From contig NC_006624.1 in the NCBI RefSeq assembly GCF_000009965.1, forward strand, positions 780,001-812,000: a DNA stretch of 32,000 bases. Direction: 5' to 3'. Below, one piece after another: positions 11,142-31,258 of this stretch. This stretch comes from Thermococcus kodakarensis KOD1 (GTDB taxonomy: Archaea; Methanobacteriota_B; Thermococci; Thermococcales; Thermococcaceae). Made by a program: the position numbers and the translations under genes. Each line of letters begins with the position of its first letter. Position 1 is the first letter of the stretch. The notes beneath the pieces are model-generated. The model did no database searches. It was given only the letters and a program-made list of their open reading frames with translations, and had not been told where the DNA came from.

Positions 11142-12470
11142 ATGGGAATGAAGAGAAAGGTCGATGAATTCATGGAAAGGCACGGCCTCGGTGTGGGGGA
11201 CCTCGTCAGGGTCGTCAAGAGGGAAGGAGACGAGAGGATAACCTTCGAGGGCCTTGTTATGCCGCCCTACGAGCTTTCTCCAGGAGAGACACTCACAATT
11301 AAGCTCGACAACGGCTACAACATCGGCATCCTGATAGACGCGATAGAGGGCATCGAAATCCTTGAGAAGGCGAAGGAAGCCCCCAAGATGGAGTTCAGGG
11401 AAGTCCTGCCGAGGAAAGAGGGCCTCCCAAGCGTTACCATTTTAGGAACGGGTGGAACAATAGCAAGCAGGATAGACTACAAGACCGGCGCGGTTCACGC
11501 CGCCTTTACTGCCGAGGAGCTGGCGAAGGCAGTCCCGGAGATCTTCGATATAGCCAACATAACGCCAAAGCTCCTTTTCAATATAATGAGCGAGGACATG
11601 AAGCCCGAGTACTGGAAAAAGATCGCCCACGAGGCCGCGAAGGCTCTCAACTCCGATGAGGACGGAGTCGTCATTGCCCACGGAACGGACACTATGGGCT
11701 ATACTGCAGCTGCACTCAGCTTCATGCTGAGGAACCTCACAAAGCCCGTAGTTCTCGTGGGCTCCCAGAGGAGTTCCGACAGGCCGAGCAGCGATGCGGC
11801 GATGAACCTCATCTGCGCCACGAGGATGGCAGTTAGTGACGCTGCTGAGGTTATGGTGGTCATGCATGGAGAGACCAGCGACACCTACTGCCTCGCCCAC
11901 CGTGGAACCAAGGTCAGGAAGATGCACACGAGCAGGAGAGACACATTCAGGAGTATCAACGACGTTCCTATTGCCAAGGTCTGGCCAGACGGAAAGATCG
12001 AGTACCTAAGGGACGACTACAGGAAGAGGGGCGAGGGTGAGGTAGAGGTTGACGACAAATTCGAGGAGAAGGTCGCGATACTCAAGATCTATCCAGGTGT
12101 AACCAGCGAGCTCCTTGAGTTCCTTGTTGATAGGGGCTACAAGGGAATCGTCATCGAGGGAACGGGCCTCGGCCACACGCCAAACGACATGATACCCGCA
12201 ATTGAGAGGGCCGTTGAGAACGGTGTGGCGGTATGCATGACGAGCCAGTGTCTCTACGGGAGGGTGAACCTCAACGTCTACTCAACTGGAAGGAGGCTCC
12301 TAAAGGCTGGCGTTATTCCATGTGAGGACATGCTCCCTGAGACGGCCTACGTCAAGCTTGGCTGGGTTCTCGGGCATACGGACGATCTCAAAGAAGTTAG
12401 GAGAATGATGCTGACCAACTACGCCGGCGAGATAACGCCCTACACGAGGTTTGACACATTCCTGAGGTGA
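11142..12470 (+). CDS. gatD: Glutamyl-tRNA(Gln) amidotransferase subunit D
   Basis: N-terminal GatD domain plus asparaginase-like domain (ILGTGGTIAS, HGTDTMGYTAAALSF). TATA ttttatag (11111-11118) places the TSS near ATG 11142; ATG 11148 is also possible. The track start at 11118 lies inside the TATA box. Confidence 0.9.
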   Translation: MGMKRKVDEFMERHGLGVGDLVRVVKREGDERITFEGLVMPPYELSPGETLTIKLDNGYNIGILIDAIEGIEILEKAKEAPKMEFREVLPRKEGLPSVTILGTGGTIASRIDYKTGAVHAAFTAEELAKAVPEIFDIANITPKLLFNIMSEDMKPEYWKKIAHEAAKALNSDEDGVVIAHGTDTMGYTAAALSFMLRNLTKPVVLVGSQRSSDRPSSDAAMNLICATRMAVSDAAEVMVVMHGETSDTYCLAHRGTKVRKMHTSRRDTFRSINDVPIAKVWPDGKIEYLRDDYRKRGEGEVEVDDKFEEKVAILKIYPGVTSELLEFLVDRGYKGIVIEGTGLGHTPNDMIPAIERAVENGVAVCMTSQCLYGRVNLNVYSTGRRLLKAGVIPCEDMLPETAYVKLGWVLGHTDDLKEVRRMMLTNYAGEITPYTRFDTFLR

Positions 12471-12676
12471 TGAGATTGGGTATTAAGGCCGTTTACCGGA
12501 ACGGGGTGTTCAAGCCTCTTGAAAAGGTGGAACTACCTGAGGGCATCGAGGTAGAGGTAGTGATAAGAAAAGCCGGCCCGATTTTGAAGAAGTACTCAGG
12601 AGTCCTGAAGAAGAGCGAGTACGACTGGGAGGCAGAGTACTATGAGTACATCGAAGAGAGAGCGCGTGGTGATTGA
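12470..12676 (+). CDS. DUF104-family antitoxin (AF2212-like)
   Basis: MRLGIKAVYRNGVFKPLEKVELPEGIEVEVVI is the DUF104 signature. Start overlaps the gatD stop (gtGATGa). Overlaps the downstream PIN gene. Confidence 0.75.
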   Translation: MRLGIKAVYRNGVFKPLEKVELPEGIEVEVVIRKAGPILKKYSGVLKKSEYDWEAEYYEYIEERARGD

Positions 12677-13115
12677 CAGCAATATCTGGGTGGAAGTCCT
12701 GAGCGGGAACAGCGACGTCATTGAACTTCTTGACAGAGTCAGCGAGGATTTCACCCTATGCATAACGCCAACCATCTATTCAGAGGTCTCTTTCGTGATA
12801 CTCGGTCACTACTTTACATCAAAAACTGGGAAGAAAGGTGTCTACGCCCTGAAAAAAGAGCTGAAAAAGAACCCAGAACTTTATGAGATCGTCGAAAAAT
12901 TTGATGAACTTCTCTATGAGCTTTCAGAAGCTGGCCTACTTGAATTCCTGGGGGAGAATGAAGAAGTCATCAGAAGGAGCAGAAAGCTCAGAAGGGAGTA
13001 CAGGCTCCTACCTAACGATGCTATGATTCTTGCTGTCTGTGATGTTTATGGAATATCCAAAATTGTGACCCTTGATGATGACTTTTTGAGAACTCACCTG
13101 GAGGTGTTGAGATGA
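12642..13115 (+). CDS. vapC: PIN-domain ribonuclease toxin (VapC-like)
   Basis: Acidic PIN residues in [30 protein letters not shown]. In-frame GTGs at 12666/12669 are alternative starts. Stop overlaps the gatE ATG (ATGA at 13112-13115), and the gatE RBS ggaggtg lies inside this ORF. Confidence 0.8.
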
Positions 13116-15001
13116 CAGACAAGTTCAACTACGAGGAGCTCGGCCTCAAGGTCGGTCTTGAGATACACAGGCAGCTCGACACCAAGAAGTTATTCTCCCC
13201 TGTCCCGAGCGAGCTCAGCGACGAGGTTGACTTCACCTTTGAAAGAAGATTGAGGCCCACGATGAGCGAGCTGGGGGAGATTGACCCTGCTGCTCTGGAA
13301 GAGTTCAAGAAGGGCAGGAAGTACATCTACGAGGGCAACTACAGGCTTACCGACCTCGTTTACATGGACGAGGAGCCGCCGAGGGGGCCCGACAGGGAGG
13401 CCCTTGAGGTTGCACTCCAGATAGGCTACCTCCTCAACGCCAAGCCAGTTGATGAGGTTCACTTCATGAGGAAGATCGTCATAGACGGTTCCAACGTCTC
13501 CGGCTTCCAGAGGACGGCGATAGTTGCCGTGAACGGGAAGGTAGATACCCCCTGGGGGAGCGTTGGAATCCCAACAGTCTGCCTTGAGGAGGATGCCTGC
13601 CGTATCGTCGAGAGGAAGGAGAAGGAGGTAATCTACCGCATAGATCGCCTTGGAATCCCGCTGGTCGAGATAAGCACAACCCCGGACATACACCACCCTG
13701 AGCAGGCTAAGGTCGTAGCCAAGTATATAGGAGACGCCCTAAGGGCCACGAGAAAGGTCAAGCGCGGTCTCGGAACCATCAGGCAGGACCTCAACGTCTC
13801 GATCAGGGGCGGAGCGAGAGTCGAGATAAAGGGTGTCCAGGAGCTTGACATGATACCACTCATCATAGAGAGGGAAGTCGAGAGGCAGCTGAACCTGCTC
13901 AGGATAAGGGACGAGCTGAAGAGGAGGGGTGTTAAGCCTGAGGACATCAAGGAGGAGTTCTACGACGTGACGGAGATCTTCCAGAACACCGGCTCGAAGA
14001 TAATCGCGAGGGCAATTAAGAGCGGCGGGAAAGTCTTAGCTGTAAAGCTCCCCAAGTTCCGCGGGTTAATCGGGAAAGAGATTCAGCCTGGAAGAAGGCT
14101 CGGAACGGAGATGGCCGACAGGGCCAAGAAGTACGTGAGGGGCATCTTCCACATCGATGAATTACCTAATTATGGAATTACAGAATTAGAGGTTAATGCG
14201 GTTATTGAAAAACTTGGTCTCGGAGAGGAGGACGCGTTCGTTCTCGTCGCGGCCGAGGAAGAGACAGCCAAGAACGCGCTCCGCGAAGTCATCAAGAGGG
14301 CGAGGGAAGCCATCGAAGGCGTTCCTGAGGAGACGAGAAGGGCCTTACCAGACGGCAATACACAATATATGCGCCCGCTTCCAGGAAAGGCCAGAATGTA
14401 CCCAGAAACTGACATACCCTCTATATTCCTGCCGCCGGAGGAGAAAGAGAGAATAAGGGCCAACCTGCCCGAGCTCCCGCAGGAGAGGGTAGAGCGCTAC
14501 GTCAAGGAGTACAAGATAGACAGGAGCTTAGCCGAGACCCTTGTAAACGACGAAAGGGATGAGCTCTTCGAGGAGCTGGTGGAGAAGGGAGTTAAACCCT
14601 CCCTGGCGGCTTCAATACTCGTCGTCGTCCTTAAGGGCCTCAAGAAGGAAGTCCCGGTCGAAAACATTACCGACGGGCACATCATGGAAGCCTTCCAGCT
14701 CTACCTCGAAGGGAAGATAGCGAAGGAGGCCTTTGAGGAGATATTCAAGGAGCTGGCACTCCACCCGGAGAAGACTGCAAAGCAGGTGGCTGAAGAGAAG
14801 GGACTGACGCTCCTCAGCGAGGAAGAGGTCGAGAAAATCATTGATGAGGTTATCCAGCAGAACATCGAGGTGATCAAGGCCAAGGGCATGGGGGCAATGG
14901 GCATGATAATGGGAAGGGCAATGGCGAAGCTCCGCGGAAGGGCCGATGGAAAGCTTGTCAGCTCCCTCGTCAGAAAGAAAATCCAGGAAATAGCGGGCTG
15001 A
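13112..15001 (+). CDS. gatE: Glutamyl-tRNA(Gln) amidotransferase subunit E
   Basis: 629 aa. GatB/E core ([32 protein letters not shown]) and C-terminal YqeY-like tail. Confidence 0.92.
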
Positions 15002-15026
15002 GGTTTTTAAGTCCTTTTTCTCCTAT
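15002..15026 (+). terminator. T-rich tracts after gatE (possible terminator, overlapping the next gene's TATA)
   Basis: ggtttttaagtcctttttctcc. tttttaag may also serve as the TATA box for the 15039 gene. Confidence 0.3.
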
Positions 15027-15038
15027 CCTCTTTTGTGA

Positions 15039-15545
15039 GTGAAAATGAAAGCCAGATTCATTGTCTTTTACTGCATAACGGACGACCAGCCACGAGGTCT
15101 CGACATAAAGGGCTACCTCAAACTTTTCGAGCCTGATACCCAGACCCTCACTGATGCTCTCCTTCAGGTCGCTCAGACTTCAGAGGTAATAACCGTTCTG
15201 AAGGCTAATTCAGGCGATTATTCAGTTGTTTACGTGGTTCCTGGTAAGACCGATGGACTCCCGTGCAGAGAAGCCTACGAGTTCCTGGTTCAGAGAGAGA
15301 AAGGTCTGGGAAAGGTCGCTGAAGATATAGTTGGCGGGGATTCAAGAAAATCTGTCCTGGGAGGTGCTTTGGTTCTGGTGGGAATAGCCGTTCTGTTCTA
15401 CGTCGGCTACTACTATCACGCACTCTCCGAGATAAACAACCTGCTCCTCTTCATCGGCGTTTTCCTCAGCGTTTTTGGTGGTATCTTGAAGGGATACCAG
15501 AAGAAGAGGGTCAGAGCATCGGCTCCTCGTCACAGATCGGAGTGA
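15039..15545 (+). CDS. Small membrane protein, soluble N-domain plus C-terminal 2-TM hairpin, unknown function (paralog A)
   Basis: GTG 15039 or ATG 15045. About 105-aa soluble domain containing LFEPDTQTL, then VLGGALVLVGIAVLFYVGYYY and LLLFIGVFLSVFGGIL, with a basic tail. Confidence 0.55.
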   Translation: MKMKARFIVFYCITDDQPRGLDIKGYLKLFEPDTQTLTDALLQVAQTSEVITVLKANSGDYSVVYVVPGKTDGLPCREAYEFLVQREKGLGKVAEDIVGGDSRKSVLGGALVLVGIAVLFYVGYYYHALSEINNLLLFIGVFLSVFGGILKGYQKKRVRASAPRHRSE

Positions 15546-15566
15546 GGGAAACTGCTCATCATCCCC
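15507..15566 (-). ncRNA. Candidate box C/D sRNA (2'-O-methylation guide)
   Basis: Minus strand reads GGGG-AUGAUGA(C)-GCAGUUUCCCUCACU-CCGA(D'-like)-UCUG-UGACGA(C'-like)-GGAGCCGAUGCU(12 nt)-CUGA(D)-CCCU. Terminal GGGG/CCCU pairing, about 60 nt. The TATA-like cctaaaaact (15586-15595, minus strand) is centred about 26 nt upstream of the 5' end. Confidence 0.45.
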
Positions 15567-15710
15567 GTTTAAGCCTCCACTGAGAAGTTTTTAGGTTTAG
15601 CTTTTTCATCTGGAACACAACGCTTTTAAAATCCAGAGTAGTATTCGACTTGATGGAGTCAGAGAAAAAAATCTCGTATAGGCCTTCCCCGGTGGAAGCC
15701 CAAAAAATAC

Positions 15711-16226
15711 GTGATGTACGCGCAGATTAGGTGTAATGTTCTTTCAACCTGTGCCTCAGAGCTTGAGGCGATTTTCAAAACGGCTGGAGTTGAGTTCGTG
15801 GGGCTCCTTGAACCCGACCCCGAAACTCTCGCCTCCTATTCGGACAGGCTCTACTCGGGAAAAACAATTGAAATAATCGAACTAATCGATGGACTGAGCA
15901 GGATGTTTTACCTGGCCTCCCTCCAGACCCCGATTAAGCCCGGTGGGGAACTTGAACCTGAGTTTACCCTCTTCTTCAATGTGAATAGCAGGGAAGCCCT
16001 TCAAGTCCTTCTCAGGGTGATCGGGAAGAAGAGAATCCGCGGAAAGAGATACAGACATCGTTCTGGGATAAACTTCGCAATAAGCTTCCTGGGCAGTCTC
16101 CTTTTTTCATCCCTCCTTAACACTAAGAACTACTTTCTCCAGTCCATCCTCCTTCTTGCTCTCACTCTTCTGATATATCTTGCAATTGACTACCCCCTTC
16201 GCGCTCCTCTACTTCAGAGGCATTGA
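15711..16226 (+). CDS. Small membrane protein, soluble N-domain plus C-terminal 2-TM hairpin, unknown function (paralog B)
   Basis: Same architecture and size as the preceding gene. Shares the LLEPDPETL motif at the same position, followed by a basic linker KKRIRGKRYRHR and two TM segments. Confidence 0.5.
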   Translation: MMYAQIRCNVLSTCASELEAIFKTAGVEFVGLLEPDPETLASYSDRLYSGKTIEIIELIDGLSRMFYLASLQTPIKPGGELEPEFTLFFNVNSREALQVLLRVIGKKRIRGKRYRHRSGINFAISFLGSLLFSSLLNTKNYFLQSILLLALTLLIYLAIDYPLRAPLLQRH

Positions 16227-16310
16227 GGTACTCTCCCACGATCCCTTTGAAAAGAAGAGCGTTAAAATAGTTAAAATTGTGAGGGCAAAGACAAACCAAG
16301 AAGAGAAAAC

Positions 16311-17537
16311 CTAACGTCCAAGCTCCTTATGGGCCTTTGCTAGGTGCTTCGCCGCTATCGCCGCCAGCAGGGAAAGCTCGCCAGCGAGAACTGCTCCAGC
16401 GACTATCTCCGCGAACTTCTTGGCGTTCGTTCCCGGTGGGTCTCCACCTCCGGCAACGCCCATAATCGAGAGAGCCTCCCTCTGCGTGGGGACTCTTGTA
16501 CCTCCGCCAACTGTCCCAATCTCAAGGCTCGGCATGGTGATGCTGATGTAGAGGTCGCCCTCTGGCGTTACTTCGGCGAGAGTTATGCCGTGTGATCCTT
16601 CTGTTATCTGGGCCTCGTCCTGCCCGGTAGCAAGGAATATCGCGCCGACGATGTTTCCGAAGTGGGCGTTGAAACCGTACGAGCCGGCCTGCGCTGAACC
16701 AACGAGGTTCTTGCGGTAGTTCACCTCGGCTATGAGTTCAGGCGTTGTCTTCAGCTTCTCCTCGACGATCTTCCGAGGAATCACGGCCTCGGCAATGACG
16801 GTCTTGCCCCTCCCGTTGATGAAGTTCATCGCGTTGGGCTTCTTGTCAACGCAGAGGTTGCCGGAGAGTGCAAGATACTTCACGTCGGGGAATTCCTCCT
16901 CGATGACCTTCATTATCTCCTCGCTCGCTATCGTGACCATGTTCATTCCCATTGCATCGCCGGTCTCGAACTCAAAGCGTAAATAGAGGTTGTTGCCCAC
17001 GATGAATGGCCTAACACCCCTCAGCTTCCCGTGCCTGGTGACCTTTGAGACCGCCTTCTCCTGGAGGTAGTCAAGGTTGTTCTTCACCCACTCAGCAACT
17101 TCTCTAGCCCTCCTCGCGTCGGGACACTTGAGGAGTGGCGCGCGCGTCATCTTGTCGTCTATTAGGGTTGTCTTAACGCCTCCCGCAGCGGTCAAGGCAG
17201 AACAGCCGCGGTTCACGCTCGCAACGAGTGCGCCCTCAGTTGTGGCGAGAGGAATGTAAAACTCTCCTTTCGCGTACTCGCCGTTGATTTTAAGCGGCCC
17301 AGCAACGCCCATGGGTATCTGGACGACGCCGATCATGTTCTCAATGTTCTTTCCTATGACCTGGTTGGGATCTATTGAGTAGTGCCCGATGTTCTCAAGC
17401 TTTATTCCGAGCTTTTTCTCAAGGGCTTTTCTTCTTATTTCAGTCGCGAGCTTTTTATCGCCGTTCGTGTACTTCTCGACCTGGTGGAGCTTAATTTCAC
17501 CGCTTGCTACCTTCTCAACAAGCTCTTCAAAGTTCAT
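16311..17537 (-). CDS. hmgA: 3-hydroxy-3-methylglutaryl-CoA reductase, class I
   Basis: EN(M)IG..., TTEGALVAS, DAMGMNMV, GTVGGGT motifs. 408 aa. RBS gggggtg lies in the 15-bp gap after the minD-like stop. Confidence 0.92.
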   Translation of the reverse strand: MNFEELVEKVASGEIKLHQVEKYTNGDKKLATEIRRKALEKKLGIKLENIGHYSIDPNQVIGKNIENMIGVVQIPMGVAGPLKINGEYAKGEFYIPLATTEGALVASVNRGCSALTAAGGVKTTLIDDKMTRAPLLKCPDARRAREVAEWVKNNLDYLQEKAVSKVTRHGKLRGVRPFIVGNNLYLRFEFETGDAMGMNMVTIASEEIMKVIEEEFPDVKYLALSGNLCVDKKPNAMNFINGRGKTVIAEAVIPRKIVEEKLKTTPELIAEVNYRKNLVGSAQAGSYGFNAHFGNIVGAIFLATGQDEAQITEGSHGITLAEVTPEGDLYISITMPSLEIGTVGGGTRVPTQREALSIMGVAGGGDPPGTNAKKFAEIVAGAVLAGELSLLAAIAAKHLAKAHKELGR

Positions 17538-17552
17538 TTCAACACCCCCAAG

Positions 17553-18299
17553 TTATTCGCCAAAAATCCATTCCTCAAGAACATCACCAATCTCCCTAAA
17601 GGCTATTGCCGCATCACTGTTTGGCATGTATTTAACTATCGGAATACCAGCGTTTACAGATGCGGGAACATTGGGATCAAAAGGTACCCACCCCAACACG
17701 GGAACATCGAGGTCAGTTTCAATGGCGTTTATAATCTCATCGACCACATCCTCACTTTCACGGACTTTGTTGAGAACTACCCCAATGTTGAGGTTGTACC
17801 TCTCTCCCAACGCCTTGAGCTTTTCAATCTCATTTTTGACCATGACTTCGAAGGAGTATATCGGAGAACGCTCTATTTCCACCACTATGATCTGGTAATT
17901 GGCCAGCTGAAAAGTCGGGAGCGTATCAAAGGGCACCCCCGTTGGGGAGTCCACGAAGACCACTCCAAACTTGTAACGGACTTTGTCTATAACATCCACG
18001 AGCTTCCTTGGAGATATTCCCAAAACATCCTGAAGCTGGGTGCTTCCGGGCATTACATATACGCCGGTCTCTCTGTGCTTGTATATTGCCCATTCCGGGT
18101 CTATATCAGGATTCTTCATAAGGGTGTGCACGGAGTACTTCACAGCATCCAGGCCAAAATGGAAACCCAAGTTTGGTAAATAAAGGTCTCCGTCAATCGC
18201 CAGAACACGGTACTCTTTCATGGCGAGGTGTGAACTTAGGTTTGCCGTTGTCGTTGTTTTTCCAGCCCCACCTCGTCCTGTCACGACGATCACTGCCAT
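17553..18299 (-). CDS. minD: MinD/ParA-family P-loop ATPase (archaeal MinD-like)
   Basis: Deviant Walker A VTGRGGAGKTTTTANL, then AIDGDL..., VVFVDSPTG. Start placed at ATG 18299 (MAVIVV...) because the TATA at about 18335-18343 predicts a TSS downstream of ATG 18317. Confidence 0.8.
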   Translation of the reverse strand: MAVIVVTGRGGAGKTTTTANLSSHLAMKEYRVLAIDGDLYLPNLGFHFGLDAVKYSVHTLMKNPDIDPEWAIYKHRETGVYVMPGSTQLQDVLGISPRKLVDVIDKVRYKFGVVFVDSPTGVPFDTLPTFQLANYQIIVVEIERSPIYSFEVMVKNEIEKLKALGERYNLNIGVVLNKVRESEDVVDEIINAIETDLDVPVLGWVPFDPNVPASVNAGIPIVKYMPNSDAAIAFREIGDVLEEWIFGE

Positions 18300-18334
18300 C
18301 TCTATCCCTCTAGCCATTAGTGTGCAGTTTGGGG

Positions 18335-18436
18335 GATATAAGGTTTCCGATTTTCTCTCTGGATAATCCTCGGAATTTTACACACATATGTCCCCTGAAG
18401 AATAACCTTGAACGCATGAACACAAAAGGTTTATAT
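18335..18436. promoter_or_regulatory. Divergent promoter pair for the minD-like gene and tdh
   Basis: The inverted copies gggGATATAAgg (18332-18343) and aaaggTTTATATCCC (18425-18439) give each divergent gene a TTATATCCC-type TATA element about 25-45 nt before its start. Confidence 0.45.
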
Positions 18437-18482
18437 CCCAAGCTGTTTAGACTGTGATTGTAAGGTTAAGGAGATGATCACT

Positions 18483-19535
18483 ATGGCCGAGAAAATGCAG
18501 GCTATTATGAAGACTAAGCCGGCGTACGGCGCCGAACTTGTAGAAGTTGACGTTCCAAAGCCTGGGCCAGGAGAAGTCCTCATTAAGGTTCTCGCAACGA
18601 GCATCTGCGGTACAGACCTCCATATCTACGAGTGGAACGAATGGGCGCAGAGCAGGATAAAGCCGCCCCAGATAATGGGCCACGAAGTGGCTGGAGAGGT
18701 CGTCGAGGTCGGTCCCGGCGTTGAGGATCTCCAGGTTGGAGATTACATCAGCGTTGAAACTCATATCGTCTGTGGCAAGTGCTACGCGTGCAAGCACAAC
18801 CGCTATCACGTCTGCCAGAACACCAAGATATTCGGAGTTGATATGGACGGTGTCTTCGCCCACTACGCGATAGTTCCGGCCAAGAACGCCTGGAAGAACC
18901 CGAAGGACATGCCGCCAGAGTACGCAGCCCTTCAGGAGCCGCTCGGAAACGCCGTCGATACCGTTCTTGCAGGCCCGATTGCTGGGAGGAGCACCCTCAT
19001 AACCGGTGCTGGACCGCTCGGTCTTCTCGGCATAGCAGTTGCCAAGGCAAGCGGGGCTTATCCAGTCATCGTTAGCGAGCCGAGTGAGTTCAGAAGGAAG
19101 CTCGCCAAGAAGGTCGGTGCTGACTACGTCGTTAACCCCTTCGAGGAAGACCCAGTCAAGTTCGTTATGGACATAACCGACGGAGCGGGCGTTGAAGTTT
19201 TCCTTGAGTTCAGTGGTGCACCTAAAGCCCTTGAGCAGGGCCTCAAGGCAGTAACACCCGGAGGACGCGTCTCACTTCTCGGCCTCTTCCCGAGAGAGGT
19301 CACGATAGACTTCAACAACCTCATAATCTTCAAGGCCCTTGAAGTCCACGGCATAACCGGAAGGCACCTCTGGGAAACCTGGTACACCGTCTCAAGCCTC
19401 ATCCAGAGCGGCAAGCTGAACCTCGATCCGATAATCACCCACAAGTACAAGGGCTTCGACAAGTTCGAGGAAGCCTTTGAGCTTATGCGCGCTGGAAAGA
19501 CCGGAAAGGTCGTCTTCTTCCCTCACAAGGGATGA
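18483..19535 (+). CDS. tdh: L-threonine 3-dehydrogenase (Zn-dependent MDR family)
   Basis: [59 protein letters not shown]...[12 protein letters not shown]...CGKCYACK closely matches my recollection of Pyrococcus/Thermococcus TDH. RBS ggag lies 10 nt before ATG 18483. Confidence 0.9.
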
Positions 19536-19610
19536 GTGGCTTGATATTCTTCTTTCCAATTTTTCAGAAAGGGTTTAAATACTGAGATACCAACTTCCCA
19601 CGGTGAGAGT

Positions 19611-19859
19611 ATGGAGATAGTAATCCCTGACGACATAATCACTGCCATGAAGCTCCCGCGTGGAGAAGTTGAGAGGGAACTGAGAGTTGACCTTGCTGTT
19701 ATTCTCTACCAAAGGGGCATTCTCCCGCTTGGAAAAGCCGCCAAGCTCGCTGGAATGACAAAGAGGGAGTTCCTTGAGGAACTGGCCAAGAGAAAGGTTC
19801 CAAGGCACTACACTGAGAAGGAGCTTGAGGAGGATCTGGCCTTTGCCCGTGGTGAGTGA
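19611..19859 (+). CDS. UPF0175-family antitoxin
   Basis: ...LAVILYQRGILPLGKAAKLAGMTKREFLEELAKRKVP is the UPF0175 signature. TATA gggtttaaatact lies about 30 nt upstream. Confidence 0.75.
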   Translation: MEIVIPDDIITAMKLPRGEVERELRVDLAVILYQRGILPLGKAAKLAGMTKREFLEELAKRKVPRHYTEKELEEDLAFARGE

Positions 19860-20328
19860 CTCAACGCCCTTAATCCACCTAGCAAAGATAGACAGGCTCG
19901 AACTTCTTCGGGAGTTCTTTGGAGAGATAATTATTCCTGAGGCCGTTTATAGAGAGTGCGTCCTTGAAGGAGGGAACTCAGAAGACGCCTTAGCTATTAA
20001 AAACGCCAAGTGGATCAAAGTCGAGAAGATATCGGACGAGAAGCTGAAGCGCGCCTTAATGCTTGAACTGGATGAGGGGGAGAGCGAGGCGATAGTTCTT
20101 GCCATCGAAAGGAACGCTGAGCTGATTCTGATCGACGACTACGATGGACGGGAAGTTGCGAGGGCCTTAGGGCTTAAGGTTGTTGGAACCATAGGTATTC
20201 TTCTCAAGGCGAAACTCCTTGGAAAGATAAAGAGCCTGAGGGAAGAACTCGAAAGGCTGAAAGCCACCGGATTCTGGTTAAGTGAGGAGTTTTATGAAAG
20301 AATTTTGAAAGAGACGGGAGAGCTTTAG
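19849..20328 (+). CDS. DUF3368-type PIN-domain toxin
   Basis: VVSDSTPLIHLAKIDRLELL...GESEAIVLAIE...LILIDDYDGREVARALGLKVVGTIGILLKAK. GTG start at 19849 or 19852 overlaps the antitoxin stop by 8-11 nt. Confidence 0.75.
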   Translation: MVSDSTPLIHLAKIDRLELLREFFGEIIIPEAVYRECVLEGGNSEDALAIKNAKWIKVEKISDEKLKRALMLELDEGESEAIVLAIERNAELILIDDYDGREVARALGLKVVGTIGILLKAKLLGKIKSLREELERLKATGFWLSEEFYERILKETGEL

Positions 20329-20519
20329 AGTTTAACGGCTATCTCGGCGTTTCCCTCCTCTGTAACTTTGAGAAGGAGAAGAGCCTTCCTCGGCTCCTTG
20401 TAGCGGCTGTGGGCGATGAATATCATTATGAAGTTGGCGAGGTTGCCGAGTCAGGCCAAGATAGTTGATATCGGTCCGATCATCCATGTAATAATGAACG
20501 CTATCCCACCAAGTATCAT
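20325..20519 (-). pseudogene. Small membrane-protein ORF interrupted by an in-frame TGA (20451-20453)
   Basis: Minus strand reads MILGGIAFIITWMIGPISTILA*LGNLANFIMIFIAHSRYKEPRKALLLLKVTEEGNAEIAVKL*. Host-like codon usage after the TGA. ATG overlaps the stop of the upstream 68-aa ORF (ATGA at 20516-20519). Confidence 0.3.
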
Positions 20520-20722
20520 GACTTTATCGAGTAATTGCGGGCGTCCTTTGCCATTTCCATTGCATTCTTGATAGCACCCTCTCCCTTGTAGTGTGTTACT
20601 AGGTATTCGGCTTCTTCTAACTCTTGATAGCTCTTTATGGCTCCCGAGATTAAAGGTCCTCCGAAAAGCAATCCGACTCCAGTGTCAGATAATATCCAGA
20701 GAAGCATAAATCCAAGTATCAA
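20516..20722 (-). CDS. Small protein with one N-terminal TM segment, unknown function
   Basis: 68-aa ORF with a TTG start (or ATG at codon 6): (M)ILGFMLLWILSDTGVGLLFGGPLISGAIKSYQELEEAEYLV... A/T-rich compared with its surroundings. Confidence 0.4.
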   Translation of the reverse strand: MILGFMLLWILSDTGVGLLFGGPLISGAIKSYQELEEAEYLVTHYKGEGAIKNAMEMAKDARNYSIKS

Positions 20723-20919
20723 CGAACATAAGGTTAGGTAATACTAAGTCTTACCATTCTGTTGAGGATAGTCATAGATACCAACGGCCATTTCCCTCAC
20801 TACCGGGGGTATAATCCTGAAGAGCAGAAGAAGAGGGACCAACTTGGCGGGTTTTCCGACACTTCTTCAACCGCAATTCTCTTAAGTTCTCCCTCTCACT
20901 CACACGGGGAGGTGGCAGT

Positions 20920-22425
20920 ATGGAGTTAAGCTACCCGGAAAAGCTCACACTCATTAAGCTCGCGGAGCTCAAGAGGGCGAAGGTTGAAGAGCTCGTTAAA
21001 GAGAGCGGTCTCGAACAGGTCGCAGTGATGCGCGCCCTTCTCGGCCTTCAGGCAAAGGGACTTGCGAAGCTCCACGAGAGGAGCGAAAGGGTTGTCAAAC
21101 TCACCGAGACCGGAATGAAGTACGCTCAAATCGGCCTTCCGGAGTGGAGGGCTTTGAAGGTTCTCCGCGAGAAGGGAAAGGCAACACTTGACGACCTCAA
21201 AGACGTTCTCAGCGAGGACGAGCTGAAGCCCATCGTTGGCCTTCTCAGGAGGGAAGGCTGGGCAAACGTGAGGAAAGAAGATGGGAAGCTAGTCCTCGAG
21301 ATAACCGAGAAGGGAAGAGAAGCTTCGGAGAGACCCATTGATAAAGCCTTAAAGCTCCTCGCCGAGAGGGGCGAAGTTCCGGTTAAGGAAATCGAAAAGC
21401 TCGTACCCGTTAACGAACTCAAGAGGAGGAAGATCGGCGAAGAAGACGTCATCACCGAGAGAGTAGCCGAGATAACCGAGAAGGGAGAGGAGCTCGTTAA
21501 GAAGGGGCTTGAGCTCAAGAAAGAGGTCTCAGTTCTCACACCTGAACTCATAAAGTCCGGCAAGTGGAGGGAAGTGGAGTTCAGGAAGTTCGACATAAAG
21601 GCTCCGGTGAGGAGAATTTACCCGGGCAAGAAGCAGCCCTACAGGGCCTTCCTCGACAAGATAAGGAGAAGGCTCATAGAGATGGGATTCATCGAGATGA
21701 CCGTTGACAGCCTCATAGAGACCCAGTTCTGGAACTTCGACGCGCTCTTCCAGCCGCAGAACCACCCGGCGAGGGAGTGGACAGACACCTACCAGCTCAA
21801 GTACCCGAAGGTCGGCTCCCTGCCGGACGAGGAGCTTGTCGCAAGGGTTAAAGCCGCTCACGAGCACGGCGGCGATACTGGCTCAAGGGGGTGGGGCTAC
21901 GTCTGGTCGCCGGAGAGGGCGATGCTCCTTATGCCTCGTGCCCATGGAACTGCACTCGACGCCAGACAGCTCGCGAAGGGCGTTGAGATACCGGGCAAGT
22001 ACTTCACAATACAGCGCGTTTTCAGACCCGATGTCCTCGACAGAACTCACCTTATCGAGTTCAACCAGATAGACGGCTTCGTAGTTGGGGAAGACCTCAA
22101 CTTCAGGCACCTGCTTGGAATACTCAAGCGCTTCGCCGTTGAAATAGCCGGGGCGAAGAAGGTCAAGTTTCTGCCGGACTATTATCCGTTCACCGAGCCG
22201 AGCGTCCAGATGAGCGCCTACCACCCTGAGCTCGGCTGGGTAGAGTTCGGAGGCGCTGGAATATTCAGGGAGGAGATGACGAAGGCCCTAGGCATAGACG
22301 TTCCAGTTATAGCATGGGGAATAGGTATCGACAGGTTAGCTATGTTCAAGCTCGGAATAGACGACATCCGTTACCTCTTCAGCTACGACCTGCGCTGGTT
22401 GAGGGAAGCGAGGCTGGTGTGGTGA
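20920..22425 (+). CDS. pheS: Phenylalanine--tRNA ligase alpha subunit
   Basis: Archaeal-type long N-terminal wHTH repeats plus class II core ([16 protein letters not shown]-like [27 protein letters not shown]). RBS ggggaggtgg. Confidence 0.92.
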
Positions 22426-22436
22426 GGGATTGAGTT

Positions 22437-22673
22437 ATGAGTGAGGAGATAATTGTGAAGTACGACCCAAACGTTGACATCCTGTACATCCAGCTCTCAC
22501 CAAAGAAGCCCGTGGACGCTGACATGAAAGGAGACGTTGTTATGGACCTCGACGAGAACGGTGAGGTCGTGGGTATAGAGATATGGCGCGCGAGAGAGCT
22601 CGTTCTCCCAGAGTTCCTCAAGTTCATTGAAAGGGTTAAAGAAGAAGGAAAGGCCGTTGAAAGCCAGGGGTGA
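22437..22673 (+). CDS. DUF2283-domain protein
   Basis: VKYDPNVDILYIQLSPKKPV...VVMDLDENGEVVGIEIWRARE is the DUF2283 signature. Starts 11 nt after the pheS stop, with the RBS ggtgaggg overlapping that stop. Confidence 0.75.
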   Translation: MSEEIIVKYDPNVDILYIQLSPKKPVDADMKGDVVMDLDENGEVVGIEIWRARELVLPEFLKFIERVKEEGKAVESQG

Positions 22674-22891
22674 TGGCCGTGCCCAAAATCGTTGTTCAGA
22701 TTCCGGAAGGTGTGAGAAAGGAATTTGTGGAGCTCCAAGTTAAGCGGGCGATTGAGGCCGAGAGGGCGAGGATAGAGTTCATCGAGGACATCGCGCGGAG
22801 GCTCGGGATAGACGAGAAGGACATTGAGGCAATAGAGAAAGCGAGGGATGAGGCTTGGCAGGAGTTCAAGAAAGAATTAGGGCTGGAGTGA
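22673..22891 (+). CDS. Small helical protein, putative antitoxin of the downstream PIN toxin
   Basis: 72-aa charged helical ORF. ATG shares one nucleotide with the DUF2283 stop (TGATG), and its stop overlaps the PIN GTG start (GTGA). Position and size fit a VapB-like antitoxin. Family not recognised. Confidence 0.5.
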   Translation: MAVPKIVVQIPEGVRKEFVELQVKRAIEAERARIEFIEDIARRLGIDEKDIEAIEKARDEAWQEFKKELGLE

Positions 22892-23298
22892 TCGTGGATA
22901 CCAACGTCATAATCTCAGCCCTCATTCCCAAAAACTCGAAGCTGAGAGAGTTCCTACTTACGACCGAAATACCACTCCACGCCCCGGATTATATGCTAAG
23001 GGAGCTTAAAAGATACTGGACCATTATTGAGGAAAAAGCCAGAAAAAGAGGAATAACTGAGCCCGAGTTAGCCCACTTCAGGGAAGAGCTCCTGGGGAGG
23101 ATTATCTCTCATCCGCTTTCCGAGTACCGCGGTTTTATAAATGAGGCCTACCGAATATGCAGGGAGTTTGACGAAAAGGATACTCCCTTCGTTGCACTCG
23201 CACTCTCGCTAAGGCTTCCGATAATAACCAACGATAAGGATTTGCTCGCCCACGCTGGCGAGTATGAGGCAATTCCCCTGAACGATGTGTTGAGGTGA
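22888..23298 (+). CDS. PIN-domain toxin (PIN_3/TIGR00305-like)
   Basis: VIVDTNVIISALI..., EKDTPFVALALSL..., PIITNDKDLL supply the conserved acidic residues. Stop lies 5 nt before pheT ATG 23304, and the pheT RBS gaggtga lies inside this ORF. Confidence 0.75.
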   Translation: MIVDTNVIISALIPKNSKLREFLLTTEIPLHAPDYMLRELKRYWTIIEEKARKRGITEPELAHFREELLGRIISHPLSEYRGFINEAYRICREFDEKDTPFVALALSLRLPIITNDKDLLAHAGEYEAIPLNDVLR

Positions 23299-23303
23299 TG
23301 CTC

Positions 23304-25028
23304 ATGCCGAAGTTCGACGTTTCAAAGCGCGACCTTGAGAGGCTCGTCGGGAAAACTTTCAGCGTCGAGGAGTGGGAAGACCTCTTCCTCTACGCCAAAT
23401 GTGAGCTGGACGACGTCTGGGAGGAGAACGGTGAAATCTACTTCAAGGCCGACTCAAAGGACACCAACAGGCCCGACCTCTGGAGTGCCGAGGGTATAGC
23501 GAGGCAGATACGATTCGCCCTTGGCTTCCAGAAGGGTTTGCCGAAGTACGAGATCGAGAAGAGTGACGTTGTAGTTTACGTGGACGAGAAGCTGAAGGAC
23601 ATCAGGCCCTACGGTGTCTATGCAATCGTTGAGGGCCTGAACATCGATGAAGAGGCCCTGAGGCAGATGATCAACCTGCAGGAGAAGGTCGCGCTCACCT
23701 TCGGAAGGAGGAGAAGGGAGGTAGCGATAGGCATCTTCGACTTCGACAAGGTCAAGCCGCCGATATACTACCGCGCCGCTGAGAAGACCGAGAAGTTCGT
23801 TCCCCTCGGCTACGACGAGGAGATGACGCTTGAGGAAATCCTTGAGAAGCACGAGAAGGGAAGGGAATACGGACACCTGATAAAGGACAAGCCCTACTAT
23901 CCTCTCCTCGTGGACAGTGAGGGCAAAGTCCTCTCGATGCCGCCGGTAATCAACTCCGAGACAACTGGAAGGGTGACAACCGAGACCAAAAACGTCTTCG
24001 TTGATATAACCGGCTGGGACTTGAATAAAGTCATGCTTGCCCTCAACGTCGTCGTCACAGCTCTCGCTGAGCGCGGCGGAAAGATAAAGAGCGTGAAAGT
24101 AGTTTATCCAGACTTCGAGATAGAGACTCCAGACCTAACGCCGAAGGAGTTCGAGGTCGAGCTCGACTACATCAGAAAATTAGCCGGCCTTGAGCTGAGC
24201 GACGGGGAAATCAAGGAGCTCCTTGAGAGAATGATGTACGAGGTCGAGCTTGAGAACAGAAGGGCAAAGCTCCGCTATCCGGCCTTCCGCGACGACATAA
24301 TGCACGCGAGGGACGTTCTTGAGGACGTGCTCATTGCCTACGGATACAACGAGATCGAACCAGAGGAGCCGAAGCTGGCAGTCCAGGGAAGGGGCGACAA
24401 GTTCATCGAGTTCGAGGACGCCGTTAGGGAGCTCATGGTCGGCTTTGGCTTACAGGAGGTCATGACGTTCAACCTGACGAACAGGGAGGCCCAGTACGAC
24501 AGGATGAATCTCCCCTGCGGGGAGCACCAGGAGGAGTGCCGGGACTACTTCAACCACCCGCCCGCTGAGCTCGTGGAAATAGAGAACCCGATAAGCCCGA
24601 AGTGGTCAGCTTTGAGGAACTGGCTCATTCCGAGTTTGCTCGACTTCCTGAGCCAGAACACCCACGAGGAGTATCCTCAAAAGTTGTTCGAGGTCGGAAA
24701 GGCTACGCTCATAGACGAGAGCAGGGAGACTAAGACGGTCAGCGAGAGCAAGCTGGCAGTGGCTTTAGCTCATCCGCGCGTGACCTTCACAGAGGCAAAA
24801 GAAATCCTCGAGGGCGTTATGCGTCACCTCGGCTTCGAGTACGAGCTTGAAGAGGCAGAACACCCGAGCTTCATTCCGGGCAGAGTTGGTAAGATCATTG
24901 TTAACGGGGAGACGATAGGAGTTATAGGGGAGATACACCCGGCCGTCTTAGAGAACTGGGGAATTGAGATGCCCGTTGCGGCCTTCGAGCTGTTCCTTGC
25001 TCCGCTCTACACGGAGCCCTATCTATGA
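23304..25028 (+). CDS. pheT: Phenylalanine--tRNA ligase beta subunit
   Basis: MPKFDVSKRDLERLVGK..., B3/4 and B5 domains, C-terminal class II-like fold. About 575 aa, typical of archaeal PheT. Confidence 0.92.
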   Translation: MPKFDVSKRDLERLVGKTFSVEEWEDLFLYAKCELDDVWEENGEIYFKADSKDTNRPDLWSAEGIARQIRFALGFQKGLPKYEIEKSDVVVYVDEKLKDIRPYGVYAIVEGLNIDEEALRQMINLQEKVALTFGRRRREVAIGIFDFDKVKPPIYYRAAEKTEKFVPLGYDEEMTLEEILEKHEKGREYGHLIKDKPYYPLLVDSEGKVLSMPPVINSETTGRVTTETKNVFVDITGWDLNKVMLALNVVVTALAERGGKIKSVKVVYPDFEIETPDLTPKEFEVELDYIRKLAGLELSDGEIKELLERMMYEVELENRRAKLRYPAFRDDIMHARDVLEDVLIAYGYNEIEPEEPKLAVQGRGDKFIEFEDAVRELMVGFGLQEVMTFNLTNREAQYDRMNLPCGEHQEECRDYFNHPPAELVEIENPISPKWSALRNWLIPSLLDFLSQNTHEEYPQKLFEVGKATLIDESRETKTVSESKLAVALAHPRVTFTEAKEILEGVMRHLGFEYELEEAEHPSFIPGRVGKIIVNGETIGVIGEIHPAVLENWGIEMPVAAFELFLAPLYTEPYL

Positions 25029-29643: not shown

Positions 29644-29724
29644 CCCCGTCCTTTCGGGCGGGGCTTCCTGCTTCATAAGGAAGACTTGCCCCGTGATGAC
29701 GGCCTCATAAGGCACGACACGGGG
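29644..29724 (-). ncRNA. Predicted omega-RNA (reRNA) scaffold segment at the tnpB 3' end/right end
   Basis: Three consecutive hairpins on the minus strand: CCCCGUG...CACGGGG (29724-29689, with inner GCCU-UAUG-AGGC), CUUCC...GGAAG (29683-29664, tnpB stop codon in its loop), and CCCCGCCC-GAAA-GGACGGGG (29663-29644). The full RNA probably extends further in both directions. Confidence 0.4.
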
Positions 29725-30848
29725 TAGAGGTCTTCCCTCCACAGGCAATCCGGTCGTCCCAACCCTTCATCCAAACCCCTCTTCAATATGTTGAGGGAAG
29801 CGTTCAAGTCCCTATCCATCACCAGCCCACACTTCGAACAGCGAAAAACCCTCTCCAGGAGAGGCAATTCCTCCACAACGAATCCACAACGGGAGCAAGT
29901 CCTTGAAGTGTAGGCTGGCTCGACGAAAACAACTCTCCGACCAGCTCTCTCAGCCTTGTCGGAGAGTATCCTAATGAAAGCACCGAGAGAAGAATCGAGC
30001 AAACGACGGTTGAGACTTTTATTACCGTTCCCAACCATATTCTTTGGTTTTAGGTTTTCCACGACAATAATGTCGTAATTCCTAACGTAGTAAAGAGCGA
30101 GTTTATGGAGAAAATCATTTCGCTGGTTCGTTAGCTTCTCGTAAGCCTTAGCTAATTTTATTCTCTCCCTCTCCCAGTTCTTCGAACCTTTTTGCTTCCT
30201 TGAGAGTCTCCTCTGTATTTTCTTAATCCTTTCAAGGGATTTCTCAAGGAACAGCGGGTTCTCAAAAGCGTTGCCGTCGCTATCAACGACGAAATGAGCG
30301 ACTCCCAAATCAATTCCAACTGCCCTACCCGTTCTGGGCAACGGTTCTGGTTCTTCCTCAGCCTGAAAAATAGCATACCACTTCCCAGTCTTCGTCCGTT
30401 TAATTATTACGCCCTTGATTTTACCTTTGATTCTCCTATGGAGCTTTATGGGGACTTCCCCAACCTTAGAGAGACGTAGTCTCTTCCTCTCCTCGTCAAG
30501 CTTGAAACCGCTTTGGTTGTAGTTCAGCGTCTTCCAGCTATTCGGTGAGGTCTTGTATCTAAGCCTCCCAACTTTATGTCCGTTCTTTTTTAGAGCCTTC
30601 AGGACGGTCAGGTTGTTCCAGAGCTGGTGGTTCACCATTTGGAGAACTTTGGAGTAAACCTCCTTGAGTTCTGGCTTTTCCTTCTTTAATTCAACGATTA
30701 GCCTTTGGGTGTCGATTCTCCCGAGCGAAGGGTTTTCCCGTATTGCCCTCAATAACTCGTTGTAGAGCCAGCGACAGAGTTCCATATGTTGGAGCATCCT
30801 TTCCTGTTGTGCTTTTGAGGGATAGATTCTGAAGCGGTAGGAACGCAT
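29673..30848 (-). CDS. tnpB: TnpB (IS605 OrfB) RNA-guided endonuclease, apparently intact
   Basis: RuvC-I GIDLGV, RuvC-II IIVVENLK, Zn finger CSRCG...CSKCG, RuvC-III MDRDLNASLNI. 391 aa. Confidence 0.9.
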   Translation of the reverse strand: MRSYRFRIYPSKAQQERMLQHMELCRWLYNELLRAIRENPSLGRIDTQRLIVELKKEKPELKEVYSKVLQMVNHQLWNNLTVLKALKKNGHKVGRLRYKTSPNSWKTLNYNQSGFKLDEERKRLRLSKVGEVPIKLHRRIKGKIKGVIIKRTKTGKWYAIFQAEEEPEPLPRTGRAVGIDLGVAHFVVDSDGNAFENPLFLEKSLERIKKIQRRLSRKQKGSKNWERERIKLAKAYEKLTNQRNDFLHKLALYYVRNYDIIVVENLKPKNMVGNGNKSLNRRLLDSSLGAFIRILSDKAERAGRRVVFVEPAYTSRTCSRCGFVVEELPLLERVFRCSKCGLVMDRDLNASLNILKRGLDEGLGRPDCLWREDLYPVSCLMRPSSRGKSSL

Positions 30849-31258
30849 CAACTCCCCTCACCTTGGCTCTCAACGTAGGCTTTGAGAACGTCGAGGGTCA
30901 CCTGCCCAGAGGTTGCGAGGAAGTATGAGGGTGACCAAAAGGTGTTTCTCCAGAGTTTTTCCTTCACTTCTGGGAAGTTCCTGCGTATTTCCCGTGAGGT
31001 AATTGTCTTTAGGGCGTTGATGTATTTTGGTATGTTGAGGGTGGGTTTTGCCTTGAATAGGATGTGAACGTGGTCTTGGTCTGTCTCTATGGTGAGAACT
31101 TCTACCTCGTGGGTCTCTGATATTTCGTGGATTTTCTGTTTGAGGAAGTCTATTATCCTGTCGTTGGTGAAGACTTTTCTGCGGTGTTTTACGACTAAAA
31201 TGAGGTGGTAATAGAGTGAATAGACTGAATGTGCTCCTTTATCGAGTTTGTATTTCAT
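30848..31258 (-). CDS. tnpA: IS200-type Y1 (HUH) transposase TnpA
   Basis: MKYKLDKGAHSVYSLYYHLILVVKHRRKVF, HUH motif DHVHIL, catalytic Tyr in SPSYFLATSG. ATG 31258 preferred over GTG 31267. Confidence 0.9.
   Translation of the reverse strand: MKYKLDKGAHSVYSLYYHLILVVKHRRKVFTNDRIIDFLKQKIHEISETHEVEVLTIETDQDHVHILFKAKPTLNIPKYINALKTITSREIRRNFPEVKEKLWRNTFWSPSYFLATSGQVTLDVLKAYVESQGEGS

Follow-up and report, generated by a model that had tools for sequence, protein, structure and literature searches.

Toxin–antitoxin modules embedded between the subunit genes of gatDE and pheST in Thermococcus kodakarensis: probable mobile cassettes at two permissive junctions

Introduction

Why should genes for predicted RNase toxins lie between the subunit genes of enzymes that act on tRNA? 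In the chromosome of Thermococcus kodakarensis KOD1, two toxin–antitoxin (TA) cassettes with PIN-domain toxin genes are found 10 kb apart, one between gatD and gatE, whose products handle tRNA-Gln, and the other between pheS and pheT, whose products handle tRNA-Phe. Both are contained in the window analyzed here, a 32,000-nucleotide (nt) stretch of NC_006624.1 (780001–812000); subtracting 780000 from the coordinates in published KOD1 tables gives the window positions used below. An earlier note on this DNA had offered two readings of the arrangement: selfish hitch-hiking on essential operons, or functional coupling of a tRNA-directed nuclease to the enzyme that handles its substrate.

Our data point to the following answer. 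Ordinary mobile type II TA modules have probably colonized two permissive intercistronic junctions, where they behave like "minimal mobile elements" between conserved essential genes. The evidence comes from the structure and transcription of the two operons, the variable occupancy of the same junctions in related archaea, and the manner in which the inserts have decayed.

Anatomy of the gatD–gatE operon

The gene map was based on an open reading frame (ORF) listing and on Pfam and NCBIfam profile scans of the window, and it upheld the coordinates and gene identities of the earlier note. The first operon contains the following features.

11148–12470 (alternative start 11118), plus strand: gatD (TK0908), first gene of the operon (TIGR02153, 9e-195)
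12464–12476, plus strand: left imperfect direct repeat GAGGTGATGAGAT at the stop/Shine-Dalgarno/start junction, 12/13 identical to 13101–13113
12470–12676 (alternative start 12467), plus strand: AF2212-like (COG2880/DUF104) antitoxin gene TK0909 (PF01954, 2e-19)
12642–13115, plus strand: PIN-domain VapC-type toxin gene TK0910, here called PIN1 (PF01850, 2e-17; NCBI name VapC family toxin)
13101–13113, plus strand: right repeat copy GAGGTGTTGAGAT, covering the PIN gene end and the gatE translation-initiation region, paired with 12464–12476
13112–15001, plus strand: gatE (TK0911), downstream subunit gene (NF003107, 3e-279)

The final base of the gatD stop codon is also the first base of the TK0909 start codon; if TK0909 begins at the GTG at 12467 instead, the two genes overlap by GTGA. 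The Shine-Dalgarno site of TK0909 is the terminal GAGGTGAT of gatD. TK0909 and TK0910 overlap by 35 nt, the TK0910 stop codon overlaps the gatE start codon (ATGA), and the GGAGGTG of gatE is located within the last codons of the PIN gene. The empty gatD|gatE junctions of relatives have the sequence CTGAGGTGATGAGGATGAC. When the 11 clusters of the PIN1 family were aligned, the acidic quartet D12, E48, D125 and D144/D146 of TK0910 was invariant, and the C-terminal LEVLR, encoded at the right repeat copy, was likewise invariant across the family. A PIN toxin with a small, overlapping upstream antitoxin of a PIN-pairing family fits the VapBC class of type II TA systems; COG2880/AF2212 antitoxins have been described as a family that accompanies PIN toxins (PMC2701414).

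Anatomy of the pheS–pheT operon

The second operon carries a longer insert.

20920–22425, plus strand: pheS (TK0921) (NF003210, 7e-187)
22437–22673, plus strand: orphan antitoxin gene TK0922 of the DUF2283 family (PF10049, 1e-17)
22669–22696, plus strand: left direct repeat of the TK0923–TK0924 module (Shine-Dalgarno site, start codon and pheT-like first codons), 20/28 identical to 23294–23321
22673–22891, plus strand: gene of a 72-amino-acid (aa) protein, TK0923, presumed PIN_2 antitoxin; always directly upstream of PIN_2 (Thermococcus, Methanoperedens)
22888–23298, plus strand: PIN_2-family toxin gene TK0924, GTG start (PF10130, 1e-22; TIGR00305, 2e-8)
23294–23321, plus strand: right repeat copy with the pheT Shine-Dalgarno site, start codon and first codons, paired with 22669–22696
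23304–25028, plus strand: pheT (TK0925), downstream subunit gene, start MPKFDV (B3_4, B5 and tRNA_synthFbeta domains)

The spacers are 11 nt between pheS and TK0922 and 5 nt between TK0924 and pheT, while TK0922 and TK0923 are joined by TGATG, and TK0923 and TK0924 by a GTGA overlap. The pheT Shine-Dalgarno site, GAGGTGAT, spans the stop codon of TK0924. The ribosome-binding sites of both downstream subunit genes are thus located in toxin genes, as had been claimed. In both operons, stop/start overlaps of 1–4 nt (GTGA, ATGA) are typical, and the largest intergenic gap is 11 nt.

The alignment of the PIN_2 family demonstrated the conserved motifs DTN, E, DEKDTPF and T-D, with invariant acidic active-site residues. 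A partner of 70–72 aa is conserved upstream of PIN_2 in Thermococcus and also in Methanoperedens, whose PIN_2 is 49% identical. TK0923 had no Pfam, NCBIfam or PDB sequence match; its AlphaFold2 model (mean predicted local distance difference test score 81) consists of an N-terminal extended, strand-like segment followed by two long helices and gave no Foldseek match in PDB. Sequence searches for solved-structure relatives of TK0910, TK0922, TK0923 and TK0924 were also negative. The gene of the DUF4258 toxin, found next to DUF2283 in relatives (see below), is missing in KOD1, and DUF2283 alone is retained. By gene content, the pheS|pheT insert is therefore composed of two putative units: an orphan DUF2283 antitoxin gene that has lost its DUF4258 partner in KOD1, and a separate 72-aa/PIN_2 module.

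The embedded cassettes had been called two independent, nonhomologous PIN cassettes. Their independence stands, because the PIN proteins TK0910 and TK0924 have no BLASTP similarity and their partners are unrelated, although both predicted toxins are members of the PIN superfamily.

Transcription of the embedded cassettes

Transcription start sites were taken from Table S2 of the differential RNA sequencing (dRNA-seq) study of Jäger et al. 2014 (PMC4247193). The primary start of gatD is at 791138 (window 11138), and no further primary start is listed until 795566 (PMC4247193); a TTTTATA box was found approximately 27 nt upstream of the gatD start site. The primary start of pheS is at 800906 (window 20906), and none is listed for TK0922–TK0925; the only other starts in pheS–pheT are one internal to pheT and two antisense starts opposite TK0923/TK0924, on the minus strand at window 22980 and 23207 (PMC4247193). 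Upstream of the embedded antitoxin genes, neither a promoter nor an operator of their own was found, the spacers being 11 nt or less with no primary start in the dRNA-seq table. Raw reads per gene in the same data track gene length along both operons. Since internal primary starts are absent and the reads scale with gene length, the embedded cassettes ride on the host operons: they lack promoters and depend for transcription on those of gatD and pheS. Antisense transcripts directed against the toxin genes might provide the promoter-less cassettes with a further level of control.

Occupancy of the gatD|gatE junction in relatives

The comparison set comprised approximately 60 Thermococcales loci. 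Relatives for gatD|gatE were obtained by a GatE scan of species-representative genomes (loci L006–L085), and those for pheS|pheT by a PheS scan of metagenomes (loci L086–L129); both sets were then mapped, the former by tblastn.

Twenty-two distinct Thermococcales loci had an empty gatD|gatE junction, with the two genes overlapping or separated by a spacer of at most 5 nt. AF2212 and PIN genes were present together at five loci (L007, L011, L030, L033 and L104), and AF2212 alone, without PIN, at two, namely L015 and L006; the latter is the closest metagenome-assembled genome (MAG) relative of KOD1, with 95% identical GatE. At these two loci (L006 9714–10007 and L015 8781–9058), approximately 130 nt of noncoding DNA with a conserved TATA-like GATAAGTATATAAAGGAGGTG is followed by an AF2212-like gene of 49–53 aa, whose stop codon overlaps the GTG start of gatE. 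Through the TATA-like motif, gatE may be served by a separate promoter at these loci. In approximately 50 Methanomassiliicoccales and other archaea, gatD and gatE were adjacent, except at two Methanomassiliicoccales loci, where an ABM-domain gene on the opposite strand separates them. Four occupancy states were thus observed at gatD|gatE. A homologue search for PIN1 yielded only 11 clusters, all from Thermococcus.

Two loci titled Bacteroides salyersiae (L068) and Eggerthellaceae bacterium (L075) carry an archaeal, Methanomethylophilaceae-like gatD–gatE with approximately 48% identity to the query; both contigs were probably mis-binned when gut MAG sets were assembled.

Occupancy of the pheS|pheT junction in relatives

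In the unbiased scans, 8 loci carried TA modules at pheS|pheT, 2 carried an iron-containing alcohol dehydrogenase (Fe-ADH) gene, and approximately 22 were empty. A DUF4258 toxin gene (PF14076, 4e-12) was found just upstream of DUF2283 in L006, L015, L090, L091 and L114. Both modules, DUF4258 + DUF2283 and 72-aa + PIN_2, were present in L006 and L114; DUF4258 + DUF2283 only in L090 and L091; and 72-aa + PIN_2 only in L113, T. cleftensis and T. peptonophilus. KOD1 shared DUF2283 + 72-aa + PIN_2 with L117, and L015 retained DUF4258 + DUF2283 + 72-aa with PIN_2 deleted. The insert is, as judged from these gene sets, a mosaic of two independent modules found in every combination, and at least seven occupancy states were counted at this junction.

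Unrelated cargo was also observed. On two Thermococcus contigs, a 406-aa Fe-ADH gene on the opposite strand parts pheS from pheT (L094 2160–3380 and L108 1168–2388); pheT there has its own GGAGGTG and an upstream spacer, and therefore pheS and pheT need no co-transcription. A free-standing, co-directional 288-aa LAGLIDADG ORF with a C-terminal zinc ribbon lies between pheS and pheT on a non-Thermococcales metagenome contig (L124 4976–5842). None of approximately 60 non-Thermococcales junctions examined carried the cassettes. The distribution of the PIN_2 family is broader than Thermococcus, and in Methanoperedens a 49%-identical PIN_2 with its 72-aa partner is located between the genes of TBP and a TPR protein.

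Approximately three-quarters of the Thermococcales junctions were bare, and the co-conservation expected of a dedicated GatDE or PheRS accessory subunit was accordingly not observed.

Decay, selection and history of the inserts

If embedding entrenches a module, as the earlier note supposed, deletions should retain the 3' stub on which the next gene depends. In L015, the last ~42 nt of the deleted PIN_2 gene are retained ahead of pheT; in T. peptonophilus, the last ~25 nt of the deleted DUF2283 gene are retained ahead of the 72-aa gene; and in KOD1, ~12 nt of the DUF4258 3' end are kept, including the Shine-Dalgarno site for DUF2283. Each of these three independent partial deletions has spared the 3' end with the Shine-Dalgarno site of the next gene. 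The T. peptonophilus draft (L135, BBBE01000005.1) has pheS, pheT and tdh split into several frames, probably by sequencing frameshifts rather than as pseudogenes, and decay inferences from this locus therefore call for caution.

Module boundaries were also marked by repeats. In L113, the 72-aa + PIN_2 module is bracketed, more clearly than in KOD1, by a 24-nt repeat, 88% identical, that comprises the Shine-Dalgarno site, spacer and ATG CCN AAR. The 72-aa ORF of L113 starts with MPKVV (compare PheT MPKFDV), and the Methanoperedens homologue starts with MKQ. Together with the repeats around both KOD1 cassettes, this suggests that the junction was duplicated on insertion, which would provide a route to precise excision.

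Pairwise ratios of nonsynonymous to synonymous substitution rates (dN/dS) were 0.00–0.25 over all cassette genes: 0.00–0.25 for TK0909, 0.05–0.23 for TK0910, 0.01–0.07 for TK0922, 0.08–0.22 for TK0923 and 0.03–0.10 for TK0924. Because purifying selection coincides with invariant catalytic residues, the cassette genes are, by these measures, working genes and not debris.

The histories of cassettes and flanks differed. L030 and L007 were 86% identical in gatD and 92% in gatE, compared with 58% in the cassette, and the cassettes of L007 and T. camini were 75% identical between flanks of 73% and 80% identity. For KOD1 and T. stetteri, identity was 94.5% in the cassette versus 89–90% in the flanks (Fisher p = 6e-5), and synonymous divergence (dS) was 0.12–0.22 versus 0.55–0.61; a sliding-window comparison of the two placed the higher-identity tract at ~12390–13450 amid a noisy background and is suggestive only. 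In neighbor-joining (NJ) trees, which were single-protein trees from MAG and metagenome contigs including some duplicates, the occupied junctions fell within one Thermococcus subclade and were interleaved with empty ones. L104 (pheS|pheT empty) and L113 (occupied) share 95.6% nucleotide identity in pheS. The simplest account of these patterns would be a few insertions, divergent alleles, exchange by homologous recombination via the conserved flanks, and repeated loss. Among plasmid records searched for close copies of the cassettes, only distant relatives (29–37%) were found, on haloarchaeal megaplasmids and a Methanocaldococcus jannaschii plasmid, and none on a Thermococcus plasmid; on the M. 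jannaschii plasmid, pDSM2661_1, an antitoxin is paired with VapC in the same way as in the gatD|gatE cassette, at 37% identity to PIN1.

Origin and persistence of the arrangement

Each module is inserted co-directionally at a stop/Shine-Dalgarno/start junction and is transcribed and translationally coupled with the host operon, and the downstream essential gene initiates from a ribosome-binding site in the 3' end of the toxin gene. The modules are dispensable and polymorphic, occurring as different alleles and module combinations, and in decayed versions the toxin is lost while the antitoxin and a 3' stub are kept. Persistence would have two sources: addiction, as antitoxin loss would free an RNase of predicted toxicity, and entrenchment, as the only viable deletions would be those sparing the translation-initiation region of the next gene. 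Gain, replacement and clean loss would occur by homologous recombination through the highly conserved flanks in a naturally competent, recombination-proficient lineage; T. kodakarensis is naturally transformable. That both flanking enzymes handle tRNA would be incidental. The absence of internal primary starts, the position of the downstream ribosome-binding site in the toxin gene and the 3' stubs kept in three partial deletions support the hitch-hiking reading of the earlier note.

Its other reading fared differently. According to this explanation, the PIN RNases act on tRNA-Gln and tRNA-Phe or on operon mRNA and are co-expressed with the enzymes in fixed stoichiometry as a quality-control or stress brake. 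Characterized VapC toxins frequently cut specific tRNAs (cited in PMC3543421), the active sites of both embedded toxins are intact and under purifying selection, the toxins are co-transcribed with the enzymes, PIN1 is known from gatD|gatE only, and other tight junctions nearby are always empty. However, about three-quarters of Thermococcales have no insert at either junction, the closest MAG relative L006 has solo AF2212 only at gatD|gatE, PIN_2 has been lost in L015, the non-PIN toxin DUF4258 occupies the same pheS|pheT niche, and the Methanoperedens PIN_2 pairs adjoin unrelated genes. Neither tRNA genes nor known RNA families, which might have linked the cassettes to tRNA, were found in the window. 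The comparative data thus lend functional tRNA coupling no support, and it was rejected as the lead explanation on account of patchy presence, toxin loss and non-PIN occupants; we regard it as highly improbable.

A further alternative dispenses with addiction and entrenchment: the junctions would tolerate any DNA, subunit co-translation would be unneeded, and TA modules would merely be the most abundant small mobile genes. The earlier note had named unrelated cargo at similar frequency as the observation that would indicate such a generic hotspot. This is partly borne out on the sequences compared: Fe-ADH (L094, L108), LAGLIDADG (L124) and ABM genes (two Methanomassiliicoccales) occur at the same junctions, and five cargo types occur in the adjacent tdh|pheS spacer. 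However, all co-directional, promoter-less, coupled inserts are TA modules (10/10 distinct occupied co-directional states), every partial deletion spares the downstream translation-initiation region, and orphan antitoxins are still under purifying selection. A generic hotspot is rather unlikely. Pure coincidence, in which two of many TA loci in T. kodakarensis lie in tRNA-enzyme operons by chance and the junctions are irrelevant, has in its favor that the occupied junctions represent only about three historical insertion events, that ordinary spacers nearby house the third module and further TA families, and that the class "heteromeric tRNA-dependent enzyme" was defined post hoc, after the data had been seen. 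Yet pheS|pheT took at least two independent TA modules, gatD|gatE has, besides a solo variant, two or more divergent alleles, and control tight junctions were empty in all relatives; chance alone is accordingly given little weight and seems very unlikely.

Several observations weigh against colonization by ordinary mobile modules, which we nevertheless prefer. The direct repeats at the cassette flanks are short and contain Shine-Dalgarno motifs, which are bound to recur. Recombination would have to be read from contrasts of identity and dS in short genes and from single-protein NJ trees, with no transfer event observed. The tight, co-directional control junctions KsgA|DUF655, Rpb4|L21e and HMGR|MinD of the same syntenic block were occupied in 0/65 cases versus 21/72 at the two tRNA-enzyme junctions, counts that include duplicate contigs and phylogenetically nonindependent genomes and are quoted without a P-value; some property of the gatDE and pheST operons may matter. 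Statistical enrichment is not claimed, because no more than about three insertion events underlie the occupied junctions. In every context checked (T. stetteri, T. camini and T. atlanticus), the PIN1 family was found only at gatD|gatE, a restriction that could mean a role tied to this locus and not just vertical or recombinational inheritance.

The locus restriction of PIN1 and the empty control junctions keep alive the idea that subunit junctions of tRNA-handling enzymes are a selected niche and that the embedded predicted RNases target tRNA-Gln/Glu-tRNA-Gln, tRNA-Phe or operon mRNA, an idea to which we assign only a slight probability. If it were true, promoter-less co-expression would tie toxin dose to enzyme amount, and in some Thermococcus lineages the decoding of glutamine and phenylalanine would be subject to an intrinsic brake or quality control.

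Relation to known systems

Taken singly, the components are standard. The cassettes resemble VapBC modules in being small two-gene units with the antitoxin first, overlapping genes, a PIN domain with four conserved acidic residues, patchy occurrence and archaeal-plasmid relatives. They differ in having no promoter, operator or intergenic space of their own and in being coupled to an essential host operon, in that the 3' end of the toxin gene also supplies the ribosome-binding site for the host gene that follows, and in that the AF2212 + PIN1 lineage is known from one chromosomal site only. The DUF2283 gene of KOD1 can be compared with DUF4258/DUF2283 pairs, which are complete at pheS|pheT in the five loci listed above, whereas KOD1 has the antitoxin only, still conserved at the low dN/dS of TK0922.

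In Neisseria, minimal mobile elements are variable cassettes between conserved flanks that are exchanged by transformation and homologous recombination (PMC3787668, PMC1797815). The likeness is that the same flank pair holds nothing, other alleles or other cargo, and that cassette and flank histories are incongruent; the difference is that the sites described here are within operons, where inserts must keep the coupling, and that exchange would be deduced rather than seen. Homing endonuclease genes offer another comparison, since the LAGLIDADG ORF at pheS|pheT in L124 suggests that the niche suits selfish genes generally, but the TA modules have no recognizable endonuclease-driven homing mechanism.

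TA genes within operons have precedents. The mazEF genes are located downstream of relA in Escherichia coli, and ndoAI/ndoA are part of the sigB-region operon in Bacillus subtilis. An MNT-HEPN pair lies inside the lysine operon of Thermus thermophilus HB8 and is not found in HB27 (PMC2701414). These modules and the present ones are alike in sharing transcripts with unrelated host genes, and their presence in some strains but not in others indicates that they moved recently. The present case differs in having two insertions, separated by 10 kb and each between the subunit genes of one enzyme, as well as stacked modules and a documented series of decay states. As to the claim that the pattern is undescribed, TA-like modules within operons had been noted anecdotally (PMC2701414), and literature searches on the locus tags, on TA genes between pheS and pheT and on TA genes within essential operons turned up no account of such an arrangement. 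Four features appear to be unreported so far: the embedding of modules without a promoter, by translational coupling, between two subunit genes of a single enzyme; the presence of two such cases within 10 kb; the stacking of modules; and the full decay series.

The finding reveals no new kind of system and no link of these nucleases to the tRNA enzymes. What the two loci offer is a compact natural series of TA entry, stacking, divergence, decay and trapping within essential operons, of which the sequenced relatives supply each stage: empty junctions, single and double modules, orphan antitoxins, and toxin stubs kept for the ribosome-binding site of the next gene. The genetic tractability of T. 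kodakarensis permits direct tests of whether operon embedding stabilizes selfish genes, of how toxin and antitoxin are balanced without a promoter, and of whether archaeal PIN toxins have tRNA targets.

The third module and neighboring genes

Upstream of pheS, a third module was identified.

19611–19859, plus strand: UPF0175 antitoxin-like gene TK0917 (PF03683, 7e-28), with a TTTAAATA box
19852–20328, plus strand: DUF3368/PIN-like toxin-like gene TK0918 of the PIN clan (PF11848, 9e-17; weak PIN-TPR-GreABC match)

TK0917 has its own primary start at 799602 (window 19602) (PMC4247193), so this module is free-standing, as previously noted. A further antisense start lies at 19924, opposite TK0917/TK0918 (PMC4247193). 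The TK0918 module had no tblastn match in any fetched relative locus and was found in T. kodakarensis only. Across loci, the tdh|pheS spacer in which it lies contained five cargo types: the UPF0175/DUF3368 module (KOD1 only), a ParE/RelE-type pair (L104), a RelB-like gene with a PIN fragment (L115), a gene for a 233–254-aa protein with no assigned family, and a major facilitator superfamily (MFS) transporter gene. TA modules land in ordinary spacers too, and the neighborhood is TA-rich.

An IS200/IS605-type element at window 29673–31258 (minus strand), approximately 4.6 kb downstream of pheT, encodes a Y1 transposase of 136 aa and a TnpB/OrfB of 391 aa. In T. stetteri, a TnpB gene lies just downstream of the gatDE region, where synteny with KOD1 breaks. 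The MinD|tdh spacer (window 18300–18482) harbors a TRAM-domain gene of 78–87 aa in 14 related loci (e.g., L110 8517–8765), and KOD1 and its closest relatives have no such gene in the spacer, which is 183 nt long.

Downstream of gatE, TK0912 (15045–15545) and TK0913 (15714–16226) are small genes with no family, apart from a weak membrane-protein match for TK0912. They are poorly conserved (28–50% identity), and relatives differ in how many of them they carry. Transcription of TK0913 begins at a separate start site (15652), and antisense starts are located at 15566 and 15601 opposite TK0912 and at 16239 opposite TK0913.

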